Shown: positions 2,330 through 18,163, counted from the stretch's first letter. The stretch is 64,000 bases of DNA from an uncultured Clostridia bacterium (GCA_934365195.1 CAKRNA010000006.1:72962-136961); one strand, 5' to 3'. Numbers and translations are program-made. The notes: generated by a model from the letters alone, not told the origin.

Positions 2330-3232
2330 TTATACTTCTCTATTTATTTCTCTTCTTAGTTTTTCGATAATATCGAAGATACGTTGCAAATCGTCCTCGT
2401 TGTAGTAGTCTATGTAAATTCTACCTTTTTGGTTGTTTCCAAGCGCTTTTACTTTAGTACCGAAAATACGTTTCATATCGTTAATAAGCGATTTAACTTC
2501 TTTTGATTGAGCCTCTTTTCTTCTTGGACCTTGAGGGATAAGTTTCCTATTAAAGTAAAGTTTTACTTGTGTTTCAAGTTGACGAACGCTCATTTTATTA
2601 TCAGCGGCTTGGTTTGCAAGTTTTACTTGGAAATCTTTGTCGTCCACAACTACAAGCGCTCTTGCGTGGCCTGCTGAAAGTCTGCCCTCTCTAACAAGGT
2701 TAATTACCTCTTTTTCTAGTGTAAGTAGACGAAGTGAGTTGGTAATTCCCGGCCTACTTTTTCCGATTTTAGAAGCAACTTGCTCTTGCGTTAGGTTGTG
2801 GCTAACCATAAGTTCTTGAATAGCCTCAGCGGCTTCGATAGGGTTTAAGTCCTCCCTTTGTAAGTTTTCGATAAGTGCGATTTCTTGAACTTCTTGATTT
2901 GTAAGTTCCTTAATAACGGCAGGAACAAACTTTAACCCTGCAAGTTTTGCTGCCCTAAACCTTCTTTCACCGGCGATAATTAGGTATCTTTCGCCCGTTT
3001 GAAGAAGAATAAGAGGTTGGATAATACCGTAATACTTTACCGACTCGGCAAGGTCGTTTAAAGCGTCCTCGTCAAAGTATTTTCTTGGTTGGTTTGGGTT
3101 GGTATCGATTAAATTGATATCAACGTCGTCTAATTGTTTTTTAATAATAGTTTTAGTTTCGATAAAGTCATCGTCTAATATATCGCTAAATAATGCGTTA
3201 AGACCTTTTCCTAGTGGATTTTTTTCACTCAT
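2330..3232 (-). CDS. parB: Chromosome partitioning protein ParB/Spo0J
   Basis: ParB box (IENLQREDLNPIEAA), HTH (GKSRPGITNSLRLL), and gene order rsmG-parA-parB. Confidence 0.9.
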   Translation of the reverse strand: MSEKNPLGKGLNALFSDILDDDFIETKTIIKKQLDDVDINLIDTNPNQPRKYFDEDALNDLAESVKYYGIIQPLILLQTGERYLIIAGERRFRAAKLAGLKFVPAVIKELTNQEVQEIALIENLQREDLNPIEAAEAIQELMVSHNLTQEQVASKIGKSRPGITNSLRLLTLEKEVINLVREGRLSAGHARALVVVDDKDFQVKLANQAADNKMSVRQLETQVKLYFNRKLIPQGPRRKEAQSKEVKSLINDMKRIFGTKVKALGNNQKGRIYIDYYNEDDLQRIFDIIEKLRREINREV

Positions 3233-3240
3233 AGTTCACC

Positions 3241-4020
3241 TCAGTTTTGTGCTTGACGTTTTATAAACTCAATAGTTAATTTAGTATAAGCGATTGCACC
3301 GTTGCAGGACTTATCGTACACAACGATAGGCTTACCGTAACTTGGCGCTTCCGCAAGTTTTACGTTACGTGGAATTTTGGTTTCGTACACAACGTTGCCA
3401 AAGAACTTTCGTATTTCGTCTTCTACTTGGAAGGAAAGTTTAGACCTACTATCGAACATAGTAAGCACAACGCCCTCGATTTCAAGGTCCTTATTAAGAA
3501 ATTTTTTAACGATACGAACAGTGTTGATTAGTTGCGACAAACCTTCTAGCGCATAAAATTCGCATTGAATAGGAATAATCAAAGAATCGCTAGCGGTAAG
3601 AGAGTTTAACGTTAGTAGTCCAAGTGACGGCGGACAGTCAAGAACGATAAAATCGAACATATCCTTAACCGGCGCAATTTTTTGTTTTAGAATTTTTTCC
3701 CTGCCTCTTTCAATGCCTGCAAGTTCAATCTCTGCGCCCGCTAAATCGATATTTGAAGGCAAAATCGATAGGTTAGGAACAGACGTTTCTTGCAAAACGC
3801 CATCGTCTAAGATAGACTTGTCGGTACAAAGCAAATTATATACCGAGAAGGAATTTTTAGATTTTTTTGCGCCCAGTCCGCTACTTGCGTTGCCCTGAGG
3901 ATCCATATCGATAAGTAGCACCTTTTTCCCCGCTATTGCAAGATAAGACGCAATATTTACGCAAGTTGTCGTTTTACCAACGCCACCTTTTTGGTTGGTG
4001 AAAGTGATAATTTTTCCCAT
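3241..4020 (-). CDS. soj: ParA/Soj partition ATPase
   Basis: Deviant Walker A (NQKGGVGKTTT); ParA-family sequence throughout; adjacent to parB. Confidence 0.9.
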   Translation of the reverse strand: MGKIITFTNQKGGVGKTTTCVNIASYLAIAGKKVLLIDMDPQGNASSGLGAKKSKNSFSVYNLLCTDKSILDDGVLQETSVPNLSILPSNIDLAGAEIELAGIERGREKILKQKIAPVKDMFDFIVLDCPPSLGLLTLNSLTASDSLIIPIQCEFYALEGLSQLINTVRIVKKFLNKDLEIEGVVLTMFDSRSKLSFQVEDEIRKFFGNVVYETKIPRNVKLAEAPSYGKPIVVYDKSCNGAIAYTKLTIEFIKRQAQN

Positions 4021-5639: not shown

Positions 5640-6074
5640 ATGGAAGAATTACAAAGAATTAAATCGTTTACAATAGACCACACAATCCATAAGGAAGGTT
5701 TTTATTTGTCAGGGGTGAGTAACAATATTTTCACCTACGACCTAAGATTCAAAAAGCCAAACGGAGATAATTACGTTCCAATCGCAGCAATGCACACTAT
5801 CGAGCACCTTTTTGCAACGGTGGTTAGGAATAGCGACGTAAAGGAAAAGGTGGTTTACTTCGGGCCAATGGGTTGCAGGACAGGTTTTTATTTGCTTCTT
5901 TTAGGCATTGATAAGGAAGAGGCAAGGGCGCTTACCGTAAAATGTATGGAAAAATGCCTAGAACTCGATTATATCCCGGGCTGCTCTGAAAAAGAGTGCG
6001 GCAACTACAAAGAACACGACTTACAAACCGCAAAAGAGGAAATCACACAGTATCTTAGCGTGTTAAAAGGCTAA
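5640..6074 (+). CDS. luxS: S-ribosylhomocysteine lyase (AI-2 synthase)
   Basis: HTIEH metal motif and GPMGCRTGFY motif; 144 aa; 8 nt after mtnN. Confidence 0.9.
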   Translation: MEELQRIKSFTIDHTIHKEGFYLSGVSNNIFTYDLRFKKPNGDNYVPIAAMHTIEHLFATVVRNSDVKEKVVYFGPMGCRTGFYLLLLGIDKEEARALTVKCMEKCLELDYIPGCSEKECGNYKEHDLQTAKEEITQYLSVLKG

Positions 6075-6110
6075 TCATAATAAGAAATCGCTTTAAAAAG
6101 TTGCAAAAAA

Positions 6111-6137
6111 AGGCTACGAAGGTAGCCTTTTATTTTT
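6111..6137 (+). terminator. Intrinsic terminator of mtnN-luxS
   Basis: AGGCTAC-GAAG-GTAGCCT followed by TTTTATTTTT. Confidence 0.8.
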
Positions 6138-6527
6138 GCTTAAATACCTATAAAAACAATGGTTTTAACGGTTAAAAACTAAAATTTGCGGGGAGAAATG
6201 GTAAAAACGCCTGAAAAACAAAACTAATTTTGCTAAAATAAACCTAAAAAAAATGAGACTAAAAACTACAATAAAATCTTTAAATATATCTTTAACAAAA
6301 CCAAATGTTACCACGTAATATAAATAGTTATAATTTGCTAGTAAACAACGAAAAAAAGAGGCAAATAATAGGTAAGACAAAATATAACCGAATAGAAGGT
6401 ATTATAAATTTTTTAGCCATATAAAGCCTTAGCGTAAAATGTTATTATTTTTCAAAAAACCTAGTGAATAGTAGGAAAAGAGGTGATTTTATTTTACACG
6501 ATAAAAGCAATTAAGCAAAAACACCCT

Positions 6528-6593
6528 GTAAAATGAAGTGCACTCAAAAAGTTAGACTGAAATATAAAACTTTTGGAGTGCATTTTTAAAGGC
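6528..6593. repeat. Left copy of a ~66-bp inverted repeat; it is itself a hairpin (CACTCAAAAAGTT...AACTTTTGGAGTG)
   Basis: About 85 percent identical by eye to the reverse complement of 6970-7036, including the loop sequence and flanks. Confidence 0.7.
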
Positions 6594-6659
6594 ACAAAAA
6601 TTTCAAACGACCGTTGCCGTCGTAGTTAAGGAAACTATAAATTAAAAATTATAAATCAA

Positions 6660-6835
6660 GGAACAGGATATACGGACGAGTATACCGGGACGTATTTTAC
6701 TGGTGACACAACGCATAACGGCTGGGAAAATACTATATCACGGGATATTTATATGATCAATTTGATGTCGCCACGGACAGAAGCAAACTGGAAATTGAAA
6801 CGTGGAGCGGTACTTTCACATTGTCTTTACAATAG
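6660..6835 (+). pseudogene. Possible 3' relic of a protein gene, frameshifted and without a start
   Basis: This segment has higher GC than its flanks. Two frames give protein-like text (GTGYTDEYTGTYFTGDTTHNGWENTISRDIY... then ...QFDVATDRSKLEIETWSGTFTLSLQ*), and a terminator follows. Confidence 0.3.
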
Positions 6836-6906
6836 TTACCGAAAAGAACTATGATTTGTTATTAAGAGAGAATAGAATTCTCGTCATTCGCTCCGATATA
6901 AGCTAA

Positions 6907-6932
6907 GCGCCCTTAAACGGGTGCTTTTTTTT
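6907..6932 (+). terminator. Intrinsic terminator inside the IR-bounded element
   Basis: GCGCCC-TTAAAC-GGGTGC followed by T8. Confidence 0.7.
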
Positions 6933-6969
6933 GCAAGGATTCGATTTTCTAAACGCTGGTCCCTTTTTT

Positions 6970-7036
6970 GCCATTAAAAATGCACCTCCAAAAGTTTTAC
7001 ATTTCTGTCCAACTTTGGGGGAGCACTTCATATTTT
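6970..7036. repeat. Right, inverted copy of the ~66-bp repeat; may also terminate the minus-strand lipoprotein gene
   Basis: Reverse complement aligns with 6528-6593; hairpin CTCCAAAAGTT...AACTTTGGGGGAG. Confidence 0.7.
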
Positions 7037-7093
7037 GGTAGTTTTATTTATTTTTTATCTTTACTAGATTTTAATAATTTAGGTAGCCGTCAA

Positions 7094-7801
7094 TTATGAA
7101 ACGTTAATAGGCACAAGCAAGTGTGCTTTCTCATTTGATACGCCGTTTGTAAGTTCAATATCCAAGTAAGTTTTTCCACTTTGTATTCCGGCGGTATCAA
7201 TTTTTATAATTAATTCCATCAAAATATTGCCGTCCGGTCTTGTTTTGGTTTCAACACGTATGTCTCCGGCTGAGTATGTTTGTCCGTACTTATCCTTTTC
7301 ATGCCTAACGTTAATTATATTTCTATCAAGGGGTACAATAACCCAAAATAGATTATCTGCAGTTAGCAAATTATCATTTAACTTTATTTTTAATTCGGCA
7401 ATTCCGCTATTTATTACTAAATCTTTTGGATTATTATCTTTATCGTAATTAGCAAAAGATTGACCGTAAACGATATTTCCAAGTTCCACTTTCACATAAG
7501 CGTCTTTGTCTTGCATACTGAAAGTGTAAGTATCCGTACCCGTTTTGCTCACGTCATTACCATTATATGTAACCTTTTTTATATATTTATTAGTGTTGGT
7601 TACGGTTACAATAACGTTTATTAATTCGTATTCTGTTGCTTCTGATTTTACGTTTACCATACAATCATCGGGCTTTTCAACAAAAATGTTATATTTTTTA
7701 GGTGGTGGCGGATCGTTATTTGCACACGACGTTAGAACAATTCCACCGATAATTACTACTAATATTAGGCTTAGCGCCACAAAAAATTTTTTATTTTTCA
7801 T
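7094..7801 (-). CDS. Lipoprotein of unknown function
   Basis: Signal peptide with lipobox (IVLTSC); 235-aa ORF in otherwise ORF-poor DNA. Confidence 0.65.
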   Translation of the reverse strand: MKNKKFFVALSLILVVIIGGIVLTSCANNDPPPPKKYNIFVEKPDDCMVNVKSEATEYELINVIVTVTNTNKYIKKVTYNGNDVSKTGTDTYTFSMQDKDAYVKVELGNIVYGQSFANYDKDNNPKDLVINSGIAELKIKLNDNLLTADNLFWVIVPLDRNIINVRHEKDKYGQTYSAGDIRVETKTRPDGNILMELIIKIDTAGIQSGKTYLDIELTNGVSNEKAHLLVPINVS

Positions 7802-8344
7802 AATACTCTCCTTATGGTGATTTGCACCATTCCTACTTAAATTTTAATACATACCTGCCTTAAAATCAATAATTCATAAATTTTTTATCGATTTATATAT
7901 AGTAAATCGTGCATTTTAATATAGAAAAACCTATATTTATTTCAATAATTATTTGTTGTAAAACCTTTGCAAAACGAATAGATTAACCGTAATTTGTATG
8001 ATAAACTTTTTTAATAATAAATATTTTTATTATGTAAACTAGAATAAATTAAAAAATATTTGTGTTAATTAAATTGATTAAATAAAATATCCAAAATAAC
8101 GAAATTGTAAAAAAATATAAATGCGTTTTTTCGAGGAGCAAAGATATATTTTGTAAATGTGGAGAAAAGGTGTATTTAGCGCTGGTTTTAACTATAAAAA
8201 AATTTTCAAAACAATAAAACTCAAGTCAAAGATAAAAAATTGCTAAATGTTATTCCAAATAGAGCGTTCTGCGTAAAAAATTGTATTATAATACTGCAAA
8301 TTTTTCACGAAAAAACCAGTAAATAAAGTAAATTTCAACAAATC

Positions 8345-8440
8345 AGAGCGGTTTAGAGGCAATTTTATTAAAAAATAGAGCATTTCAGAGGCGATTTTAT
8401 TGCAAATGAGATATTTTAGCGTGATTTAATTAAAAAATAA
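8345..8440 (+). repeat. Three tandem 32-bp iteron-like units (AGAGCnnTTnAGAGGCnATTTTATT...)
   Basis: Units start at 8345, 8377 and 8409. Units 1 and 2 match at 24/32 positions counted by eye; unit 3 is more diverged. Confidence 0.6.
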
Positions 8441-8830
8441 CCATATTTAAACTAATATTTGGTGAAACTGATTAAAAAAAACATAATAATTTATAAGTAA
8501 AAAGTGCTGTGAAACAAAATAGTAAATTTATGCAAATTATAGCATATAAATACAAAAAATATTAGTAAATATTCAACAATATTCATTATTTTATTAAAAA
8601 AAGCAAATATTTATAAATAAAATGAATATTAAATAATATGTTAAACAATTTTAGGTATTTTTTCAAGGAGCAAACATTAAATTTTATAGCAAATTTTTCA
8701 AGGAGCAAATTTGGACGATTATTTTTTGCAAAATTTATTGTATAAAACATTGTCAAATATACACAATAAAGCCGCAAATATACATAATTATTGAATAAAT
8801 ACGGAATGTATGCATAAATAATGTATAAAT

Positions 8831-8846
8831 TGTTCAACGTGAAACG
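8831..8846. other. parS-like site TGTTCAACGTGAAACG (2 mismatches to TGTTCCACGTGAAACA)
   Basis: Direct read; compared with the B. subtilis 16-bp parS consensus. Confidence 0.5.
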
Positions 8847-8863
8847 ATGCCGAAGTTTACGAA

Positions 8864-8879
8864 TGTAAAACGTGAAACA
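8864..8879. other. Degenerate parS-like site TGTAAAACGTGAAACA (3 mismatches; right half perfect)
   Basis: Direct read; lies 33 bp from the previous site. Confidence 0.35.
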
Positions 8880-9384
8880 TAATATTTTAACACAATATAG
8901 TATTTGATATATTTAGTTAAATAGAAACAGTTTATGTTGATAGGTATTTCGTGTTTTCTGTAAAAAAAATTATCAAAGTATTAAAGCAGGCAATACGGAA
9001 ATGGTTAAAAATAGGTATTCTAACAATGAGTTCTGTTTGTAAAGCATAATTAAAACTCTTCGAGCCACAAAATATAAAAGTTTAGCCGCAAAAAGCAAGT
9101 TAAATTACGTTTAATCCGTTTAAAATTGTAAATGAAAGGAGTTTTATAATTAAATTAGTTGTAATTGCATAAACCTTAGGCTATGACTATCAAAACCGTT
9201 TTTATTTTGTGATTCGTTTGAATGGAGGAAGTAAGGGCTTATGATAATAAACGTTAAAAAGGTGTAAGTAATATGCCTAGAAGAATTTTATGCTGTATTT
9301 TAAGTTAGGAATTGTTCGAAATATTTTTCTGACAGACATTATAAATTCTATATAAAACAGCAAAAAAATACTAAAAAATCTAAT

Positions 9385-9400
9385 TGTTCCACGTGAAACA
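9385..9400. other. Perfect parS centromere site TGTTCCACGTGAAACA
   Basis: Exact match to the Bacillus-type 16-bp palindromic ParB binding site; parB and parA are encoded about 6 kb away. Confidence 0.8.
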
Positions 9401-9469
9401 AAAATAAAAAATGATAATAAAGCCAAGTGATTTTTAGAAAAATAATTTAAGTTTTTAAACGCTTGAAAT

Positions 9470-9509
9470 TGTGGAAAACTAAACTTTTTGTGGATAACTT
9501 TGTGGATAA
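9470..9509 (-). promoter_or_regulatory. Cluster of three DnaA boxes in the same orientation (TGTGGAAAA, TGTGGATAA, TGTGGATAA = reverse complement of TTATCCACA)
   Basis: Boxes at 9470-9478 (1 mismatch), 9489-9497 (perfect) and 9501-9509 (perfect). Confidence 0.7.
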
Positions 9510-9704
9510 GTATGTAAAAATATAGAAAAATAAGTGTAATTTGTGATAAAACGCTGTTTTAAAGGGATAGCAACAATCGGGAGTAAAGACTTGTTTTGCC
9601 TAAATATTAAGTAGTGAAAGTTAAGGTTTTTGCTGCAATCGATAAAGCCGGTTATGTTTAATACGTAGTAGTATAGATTTGAATACCTAAGCGGTTGTGG
9701 GTGG

Positions 9705-9975
9705 AAAAAATTTTTCTAAATGAGGTTTTAAAATATTTATAAAAAACGTGTTTTAATAAAGAATAGGATATTTTTGGCAATATTTTTAAAAAATCTTTGT
9801 TTTTATAAAAACTTAGTAATGTCGGGAAGACGCTAATAGAAAAATTTTCTAAAGGAAGTTTAAATTTTTTTATATGAATCGTGTTTTTTATAATAAAAAT
9901 AGGAAGATTTTGGCAATATTTCTAAAAAAATCATTGTTTTTGTAAAAATATACTATTGTCCTGCAGAGAGTTAAA
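9705..9975 (+). repeat. Two tandem ~135-bp AT-rich units; more degenerate copies continue to about 10250
   Basis: The unit AAAAATTTTCTAAAnGAnGTTT...CGTGTTTT...ATAGGAnATTTTGGCAATATTT...TTGTTTTT is repeated at 9705 and 9840, roughly 75 percent identical by eye. Confidence 0.6.
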
Positions 9976-10444
9976 AAATTTTTTGTTAAAAATACACAAA
10001 TAGACGCTATAATACGGTCAAAAAAATGTTTTTAGTAAAATAAATAAACTTGCAGCAAGACGTTTAAAAAGTGTGTTTTATAACAAAATAAATAAAATTA
10101 CGTTATTACCATTAAAAGATTGCGTTTATTTTATAAAATATACGAATAATTATATAAGACTTTTTCGTAATAAAATATATAAATCTACCTCATAATACAC
10201 TAAAAATCGCTGTTTTATTTAATATAATGGATAAAAATGGGGCGAAAAAACTAAAAAAAGGTTTAGTAACAAGATGAAGATAAATGCTACATGAAGAAAA
10301 AAGTAATTATTTAGTAAAATGAACGAAATGTCTTATGCGCCAGGAAAAACTACCTTGATAATATGCTGATTCGTTGATTGCACGAACCACCGGCTATACT
10401 TGAAAGAGAAGGATTAAAAATATTCTGATTTTAAAAGTTTTTTG

Positions 10445-10535
10445 TTAAAATTATAGTGTTTAGTTAAATTTCGTACAATATTTATGCAATTTGGTATATG
10501 CCGAACACGGTTTAGCATTTTTTTAGTAAGCAAAA
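10445..10535 (+). repeat. Copy a of a ~80-90-bp repeat family (TTAGTTAnATTTCGnACAATATTTATGCAATT...TATATnCCGAA...)
   Basis: Aligns with 10703-10785. Partial copies lie at 10621-10680 and about 9301-9350. Confidence 0.6.
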
Positions 10536-10702
10536 GTTTTAATTAGACCGATACCGGTTTAAAAAATATTTTTTTTACTATTTTTTTTGTTATAATTATT
10601 GTATTTACTTAAATTGCTAGGAATATGTATAATATTTTCTATATGCCGGATATGTCTTAGAAGTTTTCTAGTAAGCCAGATGCAATATTTGGCAGAATAG
10701 TG

Positions 10703-10785
10703 TAAAATTATTGTTATTAGTTATATTTCGAACAATATTTATGCAATTCCTATATCCGAATACGCTTTAAGATTTTGTTTGTAAT
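10703..10785 (+). repeat. Copy b of the same repeat family
   Basis: About 80 percent identical by eye to copy a; offset 258 bp. Confidence 0.6.
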
Positions 10786-12760
10786 TGGTTGTTATATTTC
10801 AGTATCTATGGATCTATAATAACCTTTTTGTCTAGATTTAAAATGCCGCATTATTTAAACATTAAAAGATAGTTGCTAATTAGTATTTAGTGAAAATAAT
10901 TAAACTAACACAAATTTAGATGCTGCTAGCGTGCGTTTAGTAGGATAATTTAGTGATATAACGATATTTTGATAAAAAATTAGGGGGTATTGTTAAAAAT
11001 GCACCAGTTTGCTTGTTTGTGGCTTTTTGAATGGCAATATATTTAACGGTATATTTAAATAACAATGTTTAGAGGTTATTTTAATATTTAATTAAAAATA
11101 GGAGAATGGGTAAAAATTAGATTTAATTCAAGTAAAATCTAAATATTTTTGCAATAACAGGGATAAAATATATTATTTTAGAGTTAAAAAGTATTTAATA
11201 TGAAATTTTTTAAATATTAAAATATTTATTATTTTATATTAGAATAGGTTTTTAATCTATTTTTCTTTAATAAAGTGATTATCTTGATAATAAATACTAG
11301 AATATTTGCTACGTTAAATTATAAATTAGTAAAAAATTTTTTAGGCGAAAAGAGGTAATTGCTTGTTTTTAATTATTACAAATTAAAAATTTTTCTATAT
11401 TGCTATGTTAATGTAGTATTCAATAGTATGCAATAAAAACTAATAGAATTTTATTATAAATGTATAAATATACGGCGAAATCTTATTTATTGCATATCTA
11501 TACAAATTAAAAAAGCAAAAATTTATATAAATATGTTATAAACGTTTGCTCACAAGATAAAGCGGTTAAACTGCCGTTTACAGATATTCTTTATTCGGAA
11601 TTTTTTAATAAGTATTTTTAAATATAATTTTATATGAAAAAATGTTTTTGTTCAGTTTGTTTAGCGTTTGATAATTTTTGGTTAAAACTTTATTTTCGTA
11701 TTCGTTTTTATTTTTCTATTACTTATATCTGCATGCATAGTAAAACAATAAGTAAATTTAGTTGAACCGATTCAAGCAGGTTGCTTTGTCAGTATGATTC
11801 GTCAATTTTTAGGAAAAGGAGTGGTGAGGCTTAGGGGGAAACATTTTTTTCTAATTATTATGAAGCGAAGATGTTAAAATTAAATGGAACAACAGTTTCA
11901 ATTTAAAAAGATAAAGGAATAAGGACATTAAATTCTACTGCTACTTAGGTGGAGTGCAACAGTGGATACCTAAAAATTGCAAAGTTGAAACGTTTCAAGT
12001 TAATTAGAATACCGGTATTATCTCGAATGCCAAAGACTAATTTGATGAAACGTGATTGCTTGAATGTTTTAAATAATCTATATAAATTTAGCAGTACGAA
12101 GTTGTAAAAAAACCTCTATTAGTAAAAAGTCGAATTGTTTTAAGTTGCGTTTATTATATCTCTACGAGGAGAATTACGGTGTATTTTTTGGGAAAAGATT
12201 AAAAAGAATCGAGGTCGAAAAAACTGAACAAACGTTTGGTTTTTATTGACTAGATAAGATTTGTTTTCATTAACGTGGGAGGATTTGGTTTAACATATTA
12301 AATTTTTCTAATTACAAATAAAAGTAGTTATTTCAGTGCTTGTTTAACAAAAAATTGAAATATAAATAGTTAAGGAATACAATAGTTAGAATTATTAGGG
12401 GCAATTTTTTTCCTTACATATATAAATCAGTGGCAGGAAAGTTAGGGTTTAATCGGTTCACCATTATTGAATGCAGCAAGTATTTGTTTGATGCTATTTA
12501 AAAAGGGGAAAATCAACAATAATATCGGAAAAAAATAATTAAAATTGTCAATATGGCGTGGAAAAAGTTCATAATTGTGATAAAAACGGCGGTTTGCGTA
12601 GATATTTTTTATTTTGGGTTGGTAAGCGCTGTGAAACTGGTAGCAAATATTTGCAATTTTTGTAAAACGTAAGAAAATATGGCAGAAGAAAATGATTCGA
12701 AAGAAAATAAGAAAAAGAGTAGATGATAAGATGAGAAGAAGAGAGAAAGGAAAGGGGGAA

Positions 12761-12945
12761 ATTAGCCAAGGGAAAAGGCGTAAAAAAGGTGATTTGCGGG
12801 CAAAAAGCGAAAAATAGTGTGAGAAGTTTGTATCGAGGGAATCAAATTAGGAAATTGAGGGGGAGGAATGAAGTAGAGGCTTAAAACATAAAACGGGCGG
12901 TGTTAGGTTGAATATAAAACGGGCGTGGTTTAGCGTGGATATAAA
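12761..12945 (+). repeat. Left purine-rich bracket segment of the small-gene island
   Basis: It shares the exact 23-mer GGTGATTTGCGGGCAAAAAGCGA (12788-12810) with 17974-17996. It also shares colinear AAGGGGGAAAT and GTGGATATAAA blocks. Confidence 0.65.
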
Positions 12946-13031
12946 GCGGACGAGGGTAAAATTTACAAGGTGAAAAAGGAAGAATAAAAAATTTTTTAGG
13001 AAGGCGGCGGTTATCTAAAGATAAAAAAATC

Positions 13032-13059
13032 TTGACAAAAAAAGGGGATATGATATAAT
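13032..13059 (+). promoter_or_regulatory. Near-consensus sigma-A promoter (TTGACA-N16-TGaTATAAT)
   Basis: TTGACA at 13032-13037 and TATAAT at 13054-13059 with a TG extension; no CDS for the next ~465 nt. Confidence 0.65.
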
Positions 13060-13524
13060 GAAAGTAGGTGGCAAGGGTTTTCCTGATTAACCGATTTGAA
13101 AATTGTTTTATTGATTTTGAATTTAGTTTAAATTTTTTCTTGTATAGTATTAAAAAAGTTTAGAAAGTTTTGCAAGTTATTTTATTTTGGTTTTTTGTTT
13201 TTAATTTAAGCGTAAAAAGTTGGTTTGGCGTTTTGAGAATTAAAAATATGGTTGAATTTGAACGAATTAGTTGTTTTAGTAAGCCTGTTTGGTGCGGCTT
13301 AGCATCATTTTGGGGCATGAAAGGATTTAGGTTAAAGCCGTGAATTGTTTTTGGAAAATGGGCGGTTTGAAAGTAAGTAAGATTTTAAAGTATTTAAAAT
13401 GTTTGGTTAAACGGTTTGTGGCGTTTTATTTAAAAATTTGATTATCGTATTTGATAAGTATCACGAAAAAAAAGTAATCCTATTAAATAGGTTTTGAAAA
13501 TTAAGTAATAAAAGGAGGAAGGAT

Positions 13525-13818
13525 ATGGCGTTATTTGACAAATCTTATCTTGATAAAGAAAGAAACGTTATGGTGTTTGAAGTAAATAGGTACATGCTTG
13601 AAGACGAAAGCGAAGAAGAAAGAAAAACCGGTATGGCAGGGGTTCTAATTTATGAATTTAAAAAAATGTTTCCTGAAAAAAAGGAAGAGTTGGCAAAAGT
13701 TGGAGCAAATATAGCAGAACTTGAAAACGGAGACCCAGATGACGCAGAAAATACTTTAACGTTAAAAAGTATAAACAAGTTTGCATACGAATTATTTATG
13801 GTATTAAAAGATGAATAA
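13525..13818 (+). CDS. Small acidic protein, array A copy 1 (family not recognised)
   Basis: RBS AAAGGAGG about 6 nt upstream; MALFDKSYLDKERNVMVFEV...; 4 tandem paralogs. Confidence 0.75.
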   Translation: MALFDKSYLDKERNVMVFEVNRYMLEDESEEERKTGMAGVLIYEFKKMFPEKKEELAKVGANIAELENGDPDDAENTLTLKSINKFAYELFMVLKDE

Positions 13819-13896
13819 ACGGTTTAGTAAATATAGTTTGAAAAATTAGTTATTACAAAAAATATGAAAAAATATCTGATAAAAAGGAGGCACGAT

Positions 13897-14187
13897 ATGG
13901 CGTTATTTGACAAATCTTATTTAGACGAAGAAAGAAACGTTATGGTGTATGAAATCAATAAGCACACTCTTGAAGACGAAAGCGAAGAGGCTTGCAAAAA
14001 CGGTATTGTAGCGGCTTTAATTTTTGAACTTAAAAAAATGTTTCCTGAAAAAAAGGAAGAGTTAACAAAAATTAGAGCAAATATAACAGAACTTAAAAAC
14101 GGGGACCCAAATGATGCAGAAAATACTTTAATGTTAAAAAGTATAAATAAGTTTGCGTACGAATTATTTATGGTATTGAAAGATTAA
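13897..14187 (+). CDS. Small acidic protein, array A copy 2
   Basis: The start is moved to the MALFDKSY ATG, which is preceded by AAAGGAGG. It is closest to copy 1. Confidence 0.75.
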   Translation: MALFDKSYLDEERNVMVYEINKHTLEDESEEACKNGIVAALIFELKKMFPEKKEELTKIRANITELKNGDPNDAENTLMLKSINKFAYELFMVLKD

Positions 14188-14279
14188 TAAACGGTTTAGT
14201 AAAGATGGCTTGAAAGAATTAGTTATTACAAGAAATTAAAAAAATATGAAAAAAATATCTGATAAAAAGGAGGCACGAT

Positions 14280-14573
14280 ATGGCGTTATTTGACAAATCT
14301 TATTTAGACGAAGAAAGGAATGTTATGGTGTATGAAGTAGGTAGGTACACCCTTGAAGATATGGGGGAAGAAGAAAGAAAGGTTGGTATGGTATCCTCAT
14401 ATATCGACCGAATAATTGAAAAATATCCTCAAAAAGAAGAGGAATTAAGAAAAATAAATAAGTACGTAAATGAACTAATGCAATCGTGTTATGAAAATGT
14501 AGAAGAATTGTTAATGCTTTATGGTATGGATAAAATTTTAGAAATGCTTTACGAAGTTTTACGAAATGAATAA
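14280..14573 (+). CDS. Small acidic protein, array A copy 3 (most diverged C-terminal half)
   Basis: Same N-terminus MALFDKSYLDEERNVMVYEV; RBS AAAGGAGG. Confidence 0.75.
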   Translation: MALFDKSYLDEERNVMVYEVGRYTLEDMGEEERKVGMVSSYIDRIIEKYPQKEEELRKINKYVNELMQSCYENVEELLMLYGMDKILEMLYEVLRNE

Positions 14574-14665
14574 AGCAGAAGACTTAGCGTTTTTAAATAG
14601 AAAAGGAAAAGCAATTTTATTAAAAAGGGTTTTGATAAAAAAAGTAATAAAAGGAGAAGAAAAAA

Positions 14666-14995
14666 ATGGCATTATTTGACAAATCTTATTTAGACAAAGA
14701 AAGGGACGTTTGTGTATTCGAAGTAGATAAGGAAAAACTTGAAGACGTAAGCGAAGAGGCTTACAAAGACGGCATTGTAGGTGTTTTGGTTGGCGAACTT
14801 ATGGATATGTTTCCAAAAAAAGAGGACGAACTTCTAAAAATCACTACCAAAATAAATAAACTTAAATATAGAGAGCCTAGGGATGCAGAAAACACTTTAA
14901 TCCTAGAAGGTATCAATAGTTTTGCTGAGCAGTTGTTTATGGTTCTGAAAGACTGTAAAACAAGAAAAAAGCAAAAGTTTTTGGGGAGAAATTAA
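14666..14995 (+). CDS. Small acidic protein, array A copy 4 (basic C-terminal extension)
   Basis: MALFDKSYLDKERDVCVFEV...; RBS AAGGAGAAG. Confidence 0.75.
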   Translation: MALFDKSYLDKERDVCVFEVDKEKLEDVSEEAYKDGIVGVLVGELMDMFPKKEDELLKITTKINKLKYREPRDAENTLILEGINSFAEQLFMVLKDCKTRKKQKFLGRN

Positions 14996-17890: not shown

Positions 17891-18111
17891 GAAGGGGGAA
17901 ATGAATAATTAGAGCAGAAGAGAAGAAAAAAAATAGGAAAGTAGCCTAGGATAAAGGTTTGAAAAAGGAAAAGGGTGATTTGCGGGCAAAAAGCGACTAA
18001 AAAAGGAAAGAGGAATCCAAAAATAAAGGACTTTAATGAAAGATTGCGGAGCATTACTAAATTTTAAAGCCGCAAAACCCTAGGTAAACGGCGATAAGTA
18101 GTGGATATAAA
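17891..18111 (+). repeat. Right purine-rich bracket segment (rpmH upstream region)
   Basis: Exact 23-mer at 17974-17996, plus AAGGGGGAAAT and GTGGATATAAA blocks colinear with 12761-12945. Confidence 0.65.
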
Positions 18112-18134: not shown

Positions 18135-18163
18135 TTGACATAGCACTTTCTTTCATATATAAT
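18135..18163 (+). promoter_or_regulatory. Consensus sigma-A promoter of rpmH (TTGACA-N17-TATAAT)
   Basis: TTGACA at 18135-18140 and TATAAT at 18158-18163, 46 nt before the rpmH ATG. Confidence 0.75.

Follow-up and report, generated by a model that had tools for sequence, protein, structure and literature searches.

We analyzed a gene-free block in an uncultured Clostridia bacterium, represented by the Christensenellales assembly G000 (1.6 Mb in 14 contigs, 40% GC). The block occupies positions 7802-13524 (5723 bp) of a 64,000-nucleotide stretch of DNA, C6:72962-136961, which we call the window. It is probably an overgrown intergenic tract, most of it near-neutral spacer, whose functional core would be the chromosome's single parS centromere. 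This reading draws on comparisons of sequence. The variable part of the tract amounts to about 4 kb.

parS sites and a conserved module

A genome-wide scan for the parS consensus TGTTNCACGTGAAACA, allowing up to two mismatches, located sites at 8831, 8864 and 9385 and nowhere else in the 1.6 Mb, so that all of them are in the block. The first two, parS1 (TGTTCAACGTGAAACG, 8831-8846) and parS2 (TGTAAAACGTGAAACA, 8864-8879), each have two mismatches to the consensus, and parS3 (TGTTCCACGTGAAACA, 9385-9400) matches it perfectly. These are the parS sites that a reading of this DNA from its sequence only had noticed. When the same scan was applied to the sister species G002, it found three sites, all within that species' own tract, and trios also occur at the same locus in the relatives L113 and L114. 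The spacing between parS1 and parS2 is 32-33 bp in four lineages. The three sites lie at C6:81792-82361, while dnaA is at C6:71004 and the minimum of the cumulative GC skew spans 70-80 kb of the same contig, which makes the sites origin-proximal. The cognate parB and parA genes are about 5 kb away.

The sites belong to a larger conserved arrangement. We aligned the locus of G000 and its strain L110 with those of G002, L113 and L114, whose LuxS proteins are 72-97% identical to that of G000; this sample for footprinting thus comprises four to five lineages, and the relatives are all metagenome assemblies. The four-lineage alignment reveals a constant order: a half-site TTGTGAAACAAA, two or three TTTTCRAGGAGYAA boxes, ATACATAAATATTGWATAAA, parS1, parS2 and, 40-520 bp further on, the third parS site. 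In G000, the isolated parS half-site is GTGAAACA within TTGTGAAACAAA (8509-8516, plus strand) and is conserved in four lineages. The module proper (8634-8884, plus strand) contains two TTTTCAAGGAGCAA boxes (at 8660 and 8695), two boxes resembling ATRCATAA-TATTGWATAAA (at 8780 and 8810), parS1 and parS2. The 14-mer TTTTCRAGGAGYAA has three copies in the 1.6 Mb, all of them in the block and on the plus strand. An accessory box, TTTTCGAGGAGCAA, at 8128-8141 on the plus strand is the first of three copies of this 14-mer family, which is absent elsewhere in the genome and has related copies in G002, L113 and L114. Both the TTTTCRAGGAGYAA and the ATACATAAATATTGWATAAA boxes are directional and are conserved across lineages whose synonymous divergence is saturated.

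An nhmmer profile of the module finds full-length, single-copy matches in G000, L110, G002, L113 and L114, and other taxa match the parS part alone. The 7-mer GTGAAAC has 40 copies in the 1.6 Mb, compared with 71 of its complement, and the block accounts for six of the 40, which share one orientation. Given that GTGAAAC is rare genome-wide, stray half-sites for ParB may be selected against. Searching the literature for Christensenellales in combination with parS returned nothing relevant.

Extent and coding content of the block

The block is bounded by a lipoprotein gene on its left (7094-7801, minus strand) and by the first small-gene array on its right (from 13525, plus strand). Its GC content is 25%. 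The only open reading frames (ORFs) of at least 60 amino acids (aa) are at 8586-8837 and 12569-12769, both on the minus strand, and neither has a counterpart in relatives. An ORF-free zone of about 5.7 kb with just two such ORFs had been described from the sequence, and our six-frame ORF scan and the genome-wide spacer lengths bear this out. The longest stretch without an ORF of at least 100 aa in the assembly is 6062 bp and is situated at the block; the next case outside the ribosomal RNA genes measures 1966 bp. Spacers in G000 have a median length of 243 bp and a 95th percentile of 791 bp, compared with the 5723 bp of the block, which accounts for roughly 0.4% of the chromosome. It is this length, not the composition, that makes the block an outlier: against a genome at 40% GC, spacers average 28.6%, and 29% of them are at or below the 25% of the block.

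Short coding sequences that tile the region were one way in which the absence of genes could have proved illusory. We found a single ORF of at least 15 aa that is led by a Shine-Dalgarno sequence (8711-8794, 27 aa); its alignment with the sister species G002 is ridden with indels and shows no conservation. We also considered an alternative genetic code. Reassigning any one stop codon produced no coding-length frames beyond those expected of AT-rich DNA.

Misassembly was the other such concern. The interval is found at the identical length of 5723 bp, and with one mismatch in 16 kb, in L106, which was assembled independently from another sample; the underlying look-up comprised nine contigs with the same LuxS read, seven of them 50-200 kb long. 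Strain L110, which is 2.6% diverged at four-fold degenerate sites, also has the block. Therefore, the block is not an assembly artifact.

Divergence and ancestry of the tract

Comparison of G000 with G002 shows how little of the block is retained between species. Identity at the four-fold degenerate sites of seven flanking genes is no more than 56%, and unconstrained DNA is therefore expected to be unalignable. Most of the block is indeed unalignable. Only three parts align colinearly, namely 8471-8939 (68-74% identity), 9372-9529 and 12989-13209.

The closer comparison, with L110, gives rates. Four-fold degenerate sites differ by 2.58% (19 of 736) and the block as a whole by 2.28%, compared with 0.66% (7 of 1057) for the core at 8471-9529. 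The fastest-changing part, 10801-12500, differs by 4.8% in its left portion (10801-11740) and 4.2% in its right portion (11741-12500), has a GC content down to 18.6% and cannot be aligned with G002. L110 also has a 167-bp insertion in the block. These patterns fit a constrained core within near-neutral spacer.

To place the tract in the order, we examined the sequence preceding rnpA in 38 genomes, of which 36 belong to other families of the order and two to the same genus. The common state is a leftward dnaA and a rightward rpmH separated by a spacer of 0.2-0.8 kb that is full of DnaA boxes. In several families, dnaA-dnaN has moved away, and the order is luxS, parS, rpmH. Among these genomes, G024 has a perfect parS site about 100 bp before the rpmH promoter in a spacer of about 0.3 kb overall, G014 has a 2.0-kb gap at 27% GC that begins with three parS-like sites, and the gap of G012 measures 3.1 kb and contains two or three parS sites. 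Within the family of the block, the interval between luxS and rpmH is 2.1 kb at 12% GC in L113, 2.9 kb in G002 and 4.2 kb in L114, where a PadR gene lies inside. In G000, it consists of the 5.7-kb block and a further 1.7 kb formed by 6075-7093 and the lipoprotein gene at 7094-7801, or 7.4 kb altogether. The tract is an expanded form of the ancestral luxS-rpmH spacer, whose sequence turns over and whose presence persists. Comparison with related genomes, which the sequence-only reading had recommended, thus shows that parS is kept between luxS and rpmH and that the remainder is unalignable between species.

The block contains many repeats, as had also been remarked from the sequence. They include a 32-bp tandem repeat of 1.9 copies (8340-8401), a 35-bp repeat of two copies, a local tandem duplication of two units of about 133-136 bp with 79% identity (9707-9960), three degenerate units found only in the block, with spacings of 145 and 112 bp and 72-89% identity (10411-10790), and a 27-bp tandem repeat, ATAAAACGGGCGG..., of 2.6 copies (12888-12957). 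A purine-rich segment at 12733-12810 is duplicated from the region upstream of rpmH (17912-17996), and the two have an identical 20-mer, GGTGATTTGCGGGCAAAAAG. All of these features with coordinates are given on the plus strand. Genome-wide repeats or miniature inverted-repeat transposable elements were considered as block content and rejected, as all repeat families of the block are local. The phasing of A-tracts was uninformative, with modest peaks at 10-11 bp that a coding control also exhibits.

Proposed function

In line with established ParABS biology, each of the three parS sites would be a loading point for ParB dimers, which would act as CTP-gated clamps. From there, the clamps would move into the DNA on either side by sliding or bridging and would recruit SMC and ParA, so that the newly replicated origin regions are separated. 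The neighboring DnaA boxes, described below, could be an origin-proximal cluster that binds the initiator beside the Soj/Spo0J hub, and would not be the place where unwinding starts. The right edge would supply a regulated promoter and a long leader for the downstream small-gene array. We would expect the remaining 4 kb or so to have no sequence-specific role, to drift almost neutrally and to have grown by local tandem and segmental duplication, perhaps together with decayed insertions.

Some of our observations weigh against this interpretation. Divergence along the block is uneven and recombination is evident nearby (luxS differs by 3.45%), so that the low divergence of the core between strains does not alone prove constraint. 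About 4 kb of useless DNA ought to be purged from a compact genome, yet a tract of 2-6 kb is present in all lineages of the family that were sampled. Such persistence argues for a role that depends on length or composition, or else for continual re-insertion. The breadth of the GC-skew minimum, in turn, leaves room for initiation at the left part of the block.

The persistence of the tract is addressed by a different possibility, which we hold only tentatively. The tract could be a selected platform for the centromere, in which kilobases of transcription-free, AT-rich DNA are kept around the sole parS cluster and the TTTTCRAGGAGYAA and ATACATAAATATTGWATAAA boxes bind an accessory partition protein. 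Its purpose might be to let ParB clamps spread and condense unobstructed, or to insulate them from the strong rpmH promoter. This proposal is a refinement of the centromere-in-spacer interpretation and not an exclusive alternative to it. The near-neutral rate and the compact, 0.3-kb state of G024 argue against a requirement for either sequence or length.

Mobile DNA as a possible source of the tract

The decayed insertions invoked above could make up more of the block than we have assumed. If so, everything but parS would be the wreckage of mobile DNA, the luxS-rpmH spacer would be a hot spot for insertion, and the coding arrays on the right would be its youngest layer. The flanking island with its TnpV gene points in this direction, as do the island of G002, where a zeta-toxin fusion has the protein of the first array as its N-terminal domain, the PadR gene inside the L114 tract and the extra lipoprotein gene of G000. 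The tract sequences are unrelated between lineages, and the island genes, at 29-34% GC, are AT-richer than the genome.

However, we found no relic of a protein. A six-frame Pfam scan of the block, with X at stops, gave nothing but one 13-residue chance match (E=0.021), and tblastn searches of the block with 5201 ORFs of G000 and the zeta toxin that G002 has at the corresponding location returned noise alone. There is likewise no DNA similarity between the block and phages or plasmids according to blastn. The GC content of the tract is typical of native G000 spacers, and the growth that is visible is by local duplication instead of by insertion of repeats found elsewhere. Overall, we regard a tract made of mobile wreckage as unlikely. 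The decayed island that had been suggested might underlie the variable 4 kb, although no protein relic is detectable.

DnaA boxes and the replication origin

A small cluster of DnaA boxes is present 70 bp beyond parS3 (9470-9509, minus strand). It consists of TGTGGAAAA, with one mismatch, and two perfect copies of TGTGGATAA that are 12 bp apart, all within 40 bp. The cluster noticed in the sequence-only reading therefore exists, although it amounts to two perfect boxes and one with a mismatch. G002 has three perfect boxes at the matching place; in the blocks of L113 and L114, even with one mismatch allowed, there is no box. AT-rich DNA surrounds the boxes in G000, but no layout of DnaA-trios or of a DNA unwinding element is recognizable.

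A better candidate for oriC, judging from its layout, is the 201-bp spacer between dnaA and dnaN, at about 72.4 kb of C6 and about 8 kb to the left of the block. It has 3-7 DnaA boxes, a tandem pair and an AT tract. In all four lineages, this spacer comprises one to five left-hand boxes, then two adjacent boxes in the same direction (GTTATCCACTTTATCMACA), and then an AT-rich tract before the ribosome-binding site of dnaN. Bacillus-type origins have this layout in their incC part. The cumulative GC skew of C6 has its minimum in a plateau at 70-80 kb, which includes dnaA (71.0 kb) and stops at the block (80.76 kb). The GC-skew analysis proposed from the sequence was thus run, and its minimum is too broad to single out the block.

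Could the block nevertheless be or contain a working oriC, either a displaced one or the second half of a bipartite origin, in which the boxes at 9470-9509 nucleate DnaA and an AT-rich stretch unwinds? Two perfect tandem boxes and a third in AT-rich, non-coding DNA, conserved in G002, are consistent with this idea. Strongly positive GC skew starts at the left edge of the block, where the plateau ends. The 113-bp spacer upstream of dnaA has no boxes, so there is no upstream cluster like incA/B of Bacillus subtilis. In addition, minus-strand genes of G000 between dnaN and the block have a four-fold-site skew like that of the leading strand.

This last signal is not replicated in G002, L112 or L113. 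As a means of placing the origin among the genes from dnaA to the block, four-fold-site GC skew also misclassified gyrA, gyrB and recF, and we rejected it. Moreover, L113 and L114 keep the tract and the parS module in spite of lacking the boxes, and the dnaA-dnaN spacer has a common layout in all four lineages. The double-box 25-mer is also found at C1:301603, in a six-box cluster without a switch in skew, and in other genera; it is therefore a general DnaA site. We consider an origin in the block quite unlikely, and the block is probably not a replication origin. The proposal of an enlarged oriC/centromere region thus divides: its centromere half agrees with the location of all parS-like sites in the block and with the module being its best-conserved part, and its oriC half does not agree with a cluster of three boxes that is absent in two lineages.

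Two other places in the genome are relevant to DnaA boxes and GC skew. At C1:301560-301650, about six DnaA boxes, three of them perfect, occupy a divergent spacer between an amidase-like gene and a gene for a 195-aa protein. This cluster and the block have the 25-mer TTTGTGGATAACTTTGTGGATAA in common, and GC skew does not switch there. It probably has a regulatory or titrating role. The second-longest ORF-free stretch of the assembly, C2:183254-185219 (1966 bp, 16.8% GC), is where the skew of C2 turns from positive to negative, at about 180 kb. This switch is likely to be the replication terminus.

Search for structured RNAs

Large non-coding RNA (ncRNA) genes had been suggested as one explanation of the block, and the searches give no sign of them. 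Rfam has no match in the G000 block at the gathering score or at E<=1, and none at the gathering score in the loci of three relatives. Folding z-scores in sliding 120-nt windows on both strands scatter around zero, with isolated values of about -3 and no negative run. The islands of higher GC that had been pointed out as possible gene relics or structured RNA do exist, but Pfam and folding scans favor neither identity: they fold no better than shuffled sequences (z=+0.8 for 10300-10420 and z=-1.9 for 11950-12090). The consensus fold of the module is weak, at -9.7 kcal/mol over 254 columns, and its covariation term is unfavorable.

That the block encodes one or more long or small ncRNAs, for example a rightward transcript from promoter-like sequences in the conserved module, is very improbable: an excess of purines and of G on the plus strand throughout (GC skew +0.31), promoter-like sites slightly more numerous than in shuffles (83 compared with 65 +/- 8) and a double hairpin at 12213-12310 in the fast-evolving part (plus strand, stems of 17 bp and 14 bp, z = -3.4) speak for it, but the variable parts change at close to the neutral rate, and the Rfam and folding results above are all contrary to it.

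Right edge and gene neighborhood

At the right edge of the block, a palindrome that is unique in the genome, TTATCTAAAGATAA, is followed by a promoter (13011-13059 for both, plus strand), and both are conserved in G002. The promoter itself (13032-13059) matches the sigma-70 consensus at 12 of 12 positions, with the form TTGACA-N16-TATAAT and a TG extension. The palindrome is likely to be the operator for a repressor of the small-gene array. Downstream of the promoter is the untranslated leader of the first array (13060-13524, plus strand), about 465 nt that are poor in C, with no ORF and no signal of structure.

The genes to the left of the block are, in order, gyrA, gyrB and recF (all leftward), dnaA and dnaN (rightward), a tRNA gene, a gene for a leucine-rich-repeat (LRR) lipoprotein, parB, parA and rsmG (all leftward), and mtnN and luxS (rightward). 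An odd 1-kb spacer (6075-7093) follows, and then the leftward lipoprotein gene that adjoins the block (7094-7801). The assignment of parB (2330-3232, minus strand) is based on the Pfam domains ParB_N (PF02195) and HTH_ParB (PF17762), and that of parA/soj (3241-4020, minus strand) on ParA and CbiA domains (PF01656, PF10609 and PF13614), in each case detected on the identical gene of L106. To the right of the block are four paralogs of a 97-aa protein, a TnpV gene and four paralogs of a 119-aa protein, so that a mobile-type island sits between the tract and rpmH in G000. Further right are rnpA, yidD, yidC, jag and mnmE; a perfect promoter is located at 18135-18163, where rpmH is expected.

The origin region (C6:65075-91651) is rearranged relative to most of the order, as judged together with G002, L112 and L113. 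To the left of dnaA, whose upstream spacer of 113 bp has no DnaA box, recF, gyrB and gyrA are in inverted orientation. The genes parB, parA and rsmG are inverted between dnaN and mtnN, and rpmH is about 19 kb from dnaA. In luxS (5640-6074), G000 and L110 differ by 3.45%, and in neighboring genes by 0.4-0.9%. This excess suggests a recombination tract at luxS.

Between luxS and the lipoprotein gene is a hairpin-bounded element of about 0.5 kb (6528-7036), with related arms at C8:19320-19404 and C6:24229. In L110, this interval has been replaced or has diverged strongly, with 34% mismatches as well as indels, and its flanks are 99% identical. Two Logan assemblies end precisely at window position 6993, inside the element. 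It looks like a small mobile or recombinogenic repeat.

The protein of the first array (about 97 aa, MALFDKSYLD..., 13525-14995) corresponds in G002 to the N-terminal domain of a 391-aa protein (L009:16777-17952), the rest of which is a Zeta_toxin domain (Pfam, E=1.6e-15). G000 has four tandem paralogs without a toxin, and there is no relic of the zeta domain anywhere in its genome. The paralogs may be orphaned, amplified antitoxin-like domains. A metagenome scan with the array protein recovered as its sole match the G002 sequence again, at 100% identity.

Significance and comparison with known systems

The usual description of a bacterial centromere is of a handful of 16-bp sites dispersed within ordinary genes or between them. 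Here, a small and tightly packed gut genome gives its longest non-coding stretch to the DNA around its sole parS cluster, and its relatives do likewise with unrelated spacer sequence. If the spacer is selected, it would represent a bacterial "regional" centromere, whose flanks matter by length or composition over sequence, and would point to a partner of ParB that binds the boxes. If it is neutral, it would be a rare spot in a streamlined genome where deletion fails to purge DNA, and it would be useful for estimating neutral rates and for studying rearrangements of the origin region in Christensenellales. For annotation, DnaA boxes and AT-richness alone are insufficient to call an oriC.

ParABS centromeres have been reviewed, including the spreading of ParB, the roadblocks that limit it and its binding to half-sites (PMC7022226). 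Like those of Bacillus subtilis and the four-site cluster of Pseudomonas aeruginosa (PMC7022226), the block has a 16-bp palindrome of the TGTTNCACGTGAAACA type in a cluster of three sites, which is within about 10 kb of dnaA, has parA and parB nearby and is accompanied by extra half-sites. Unlike those centromeres, its sites are in one gene-free tract (2-6 kb in the family) and not inside or between ordinary genes, there is no other site in the assembly, and directional boxes specific to the family, TTTTCRAGGAGYAA and ATACATAAATATTGWATAAA, precede the sites.

The DnaA boxes have a counterpart in B. subtilis, where origin-proximal DnaA-box clusters (DBCs) outside oriC interact genetically with Spo0J/Soj (Okumura et al. 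2012, PMC3245932). In contrast to the B. subtilis DBCs, the block has just three boxes, which are directly beside parS and are found in two of four lineages. In common with them (PMC3245932), its few consensus boxes are intergenic, are near the origin and not in it, and occur in a genome with Soj/Spo0J, and there is a second cluster at C1:301560-301650. Since the boxes are absent in two lineages and the same 25-mer occurs on C1 and in other genera, they appear to be a DnaA-box cluster of the non-oriC kind, and, by these features, they fit the class of DnaA-box clusters outside oriC.

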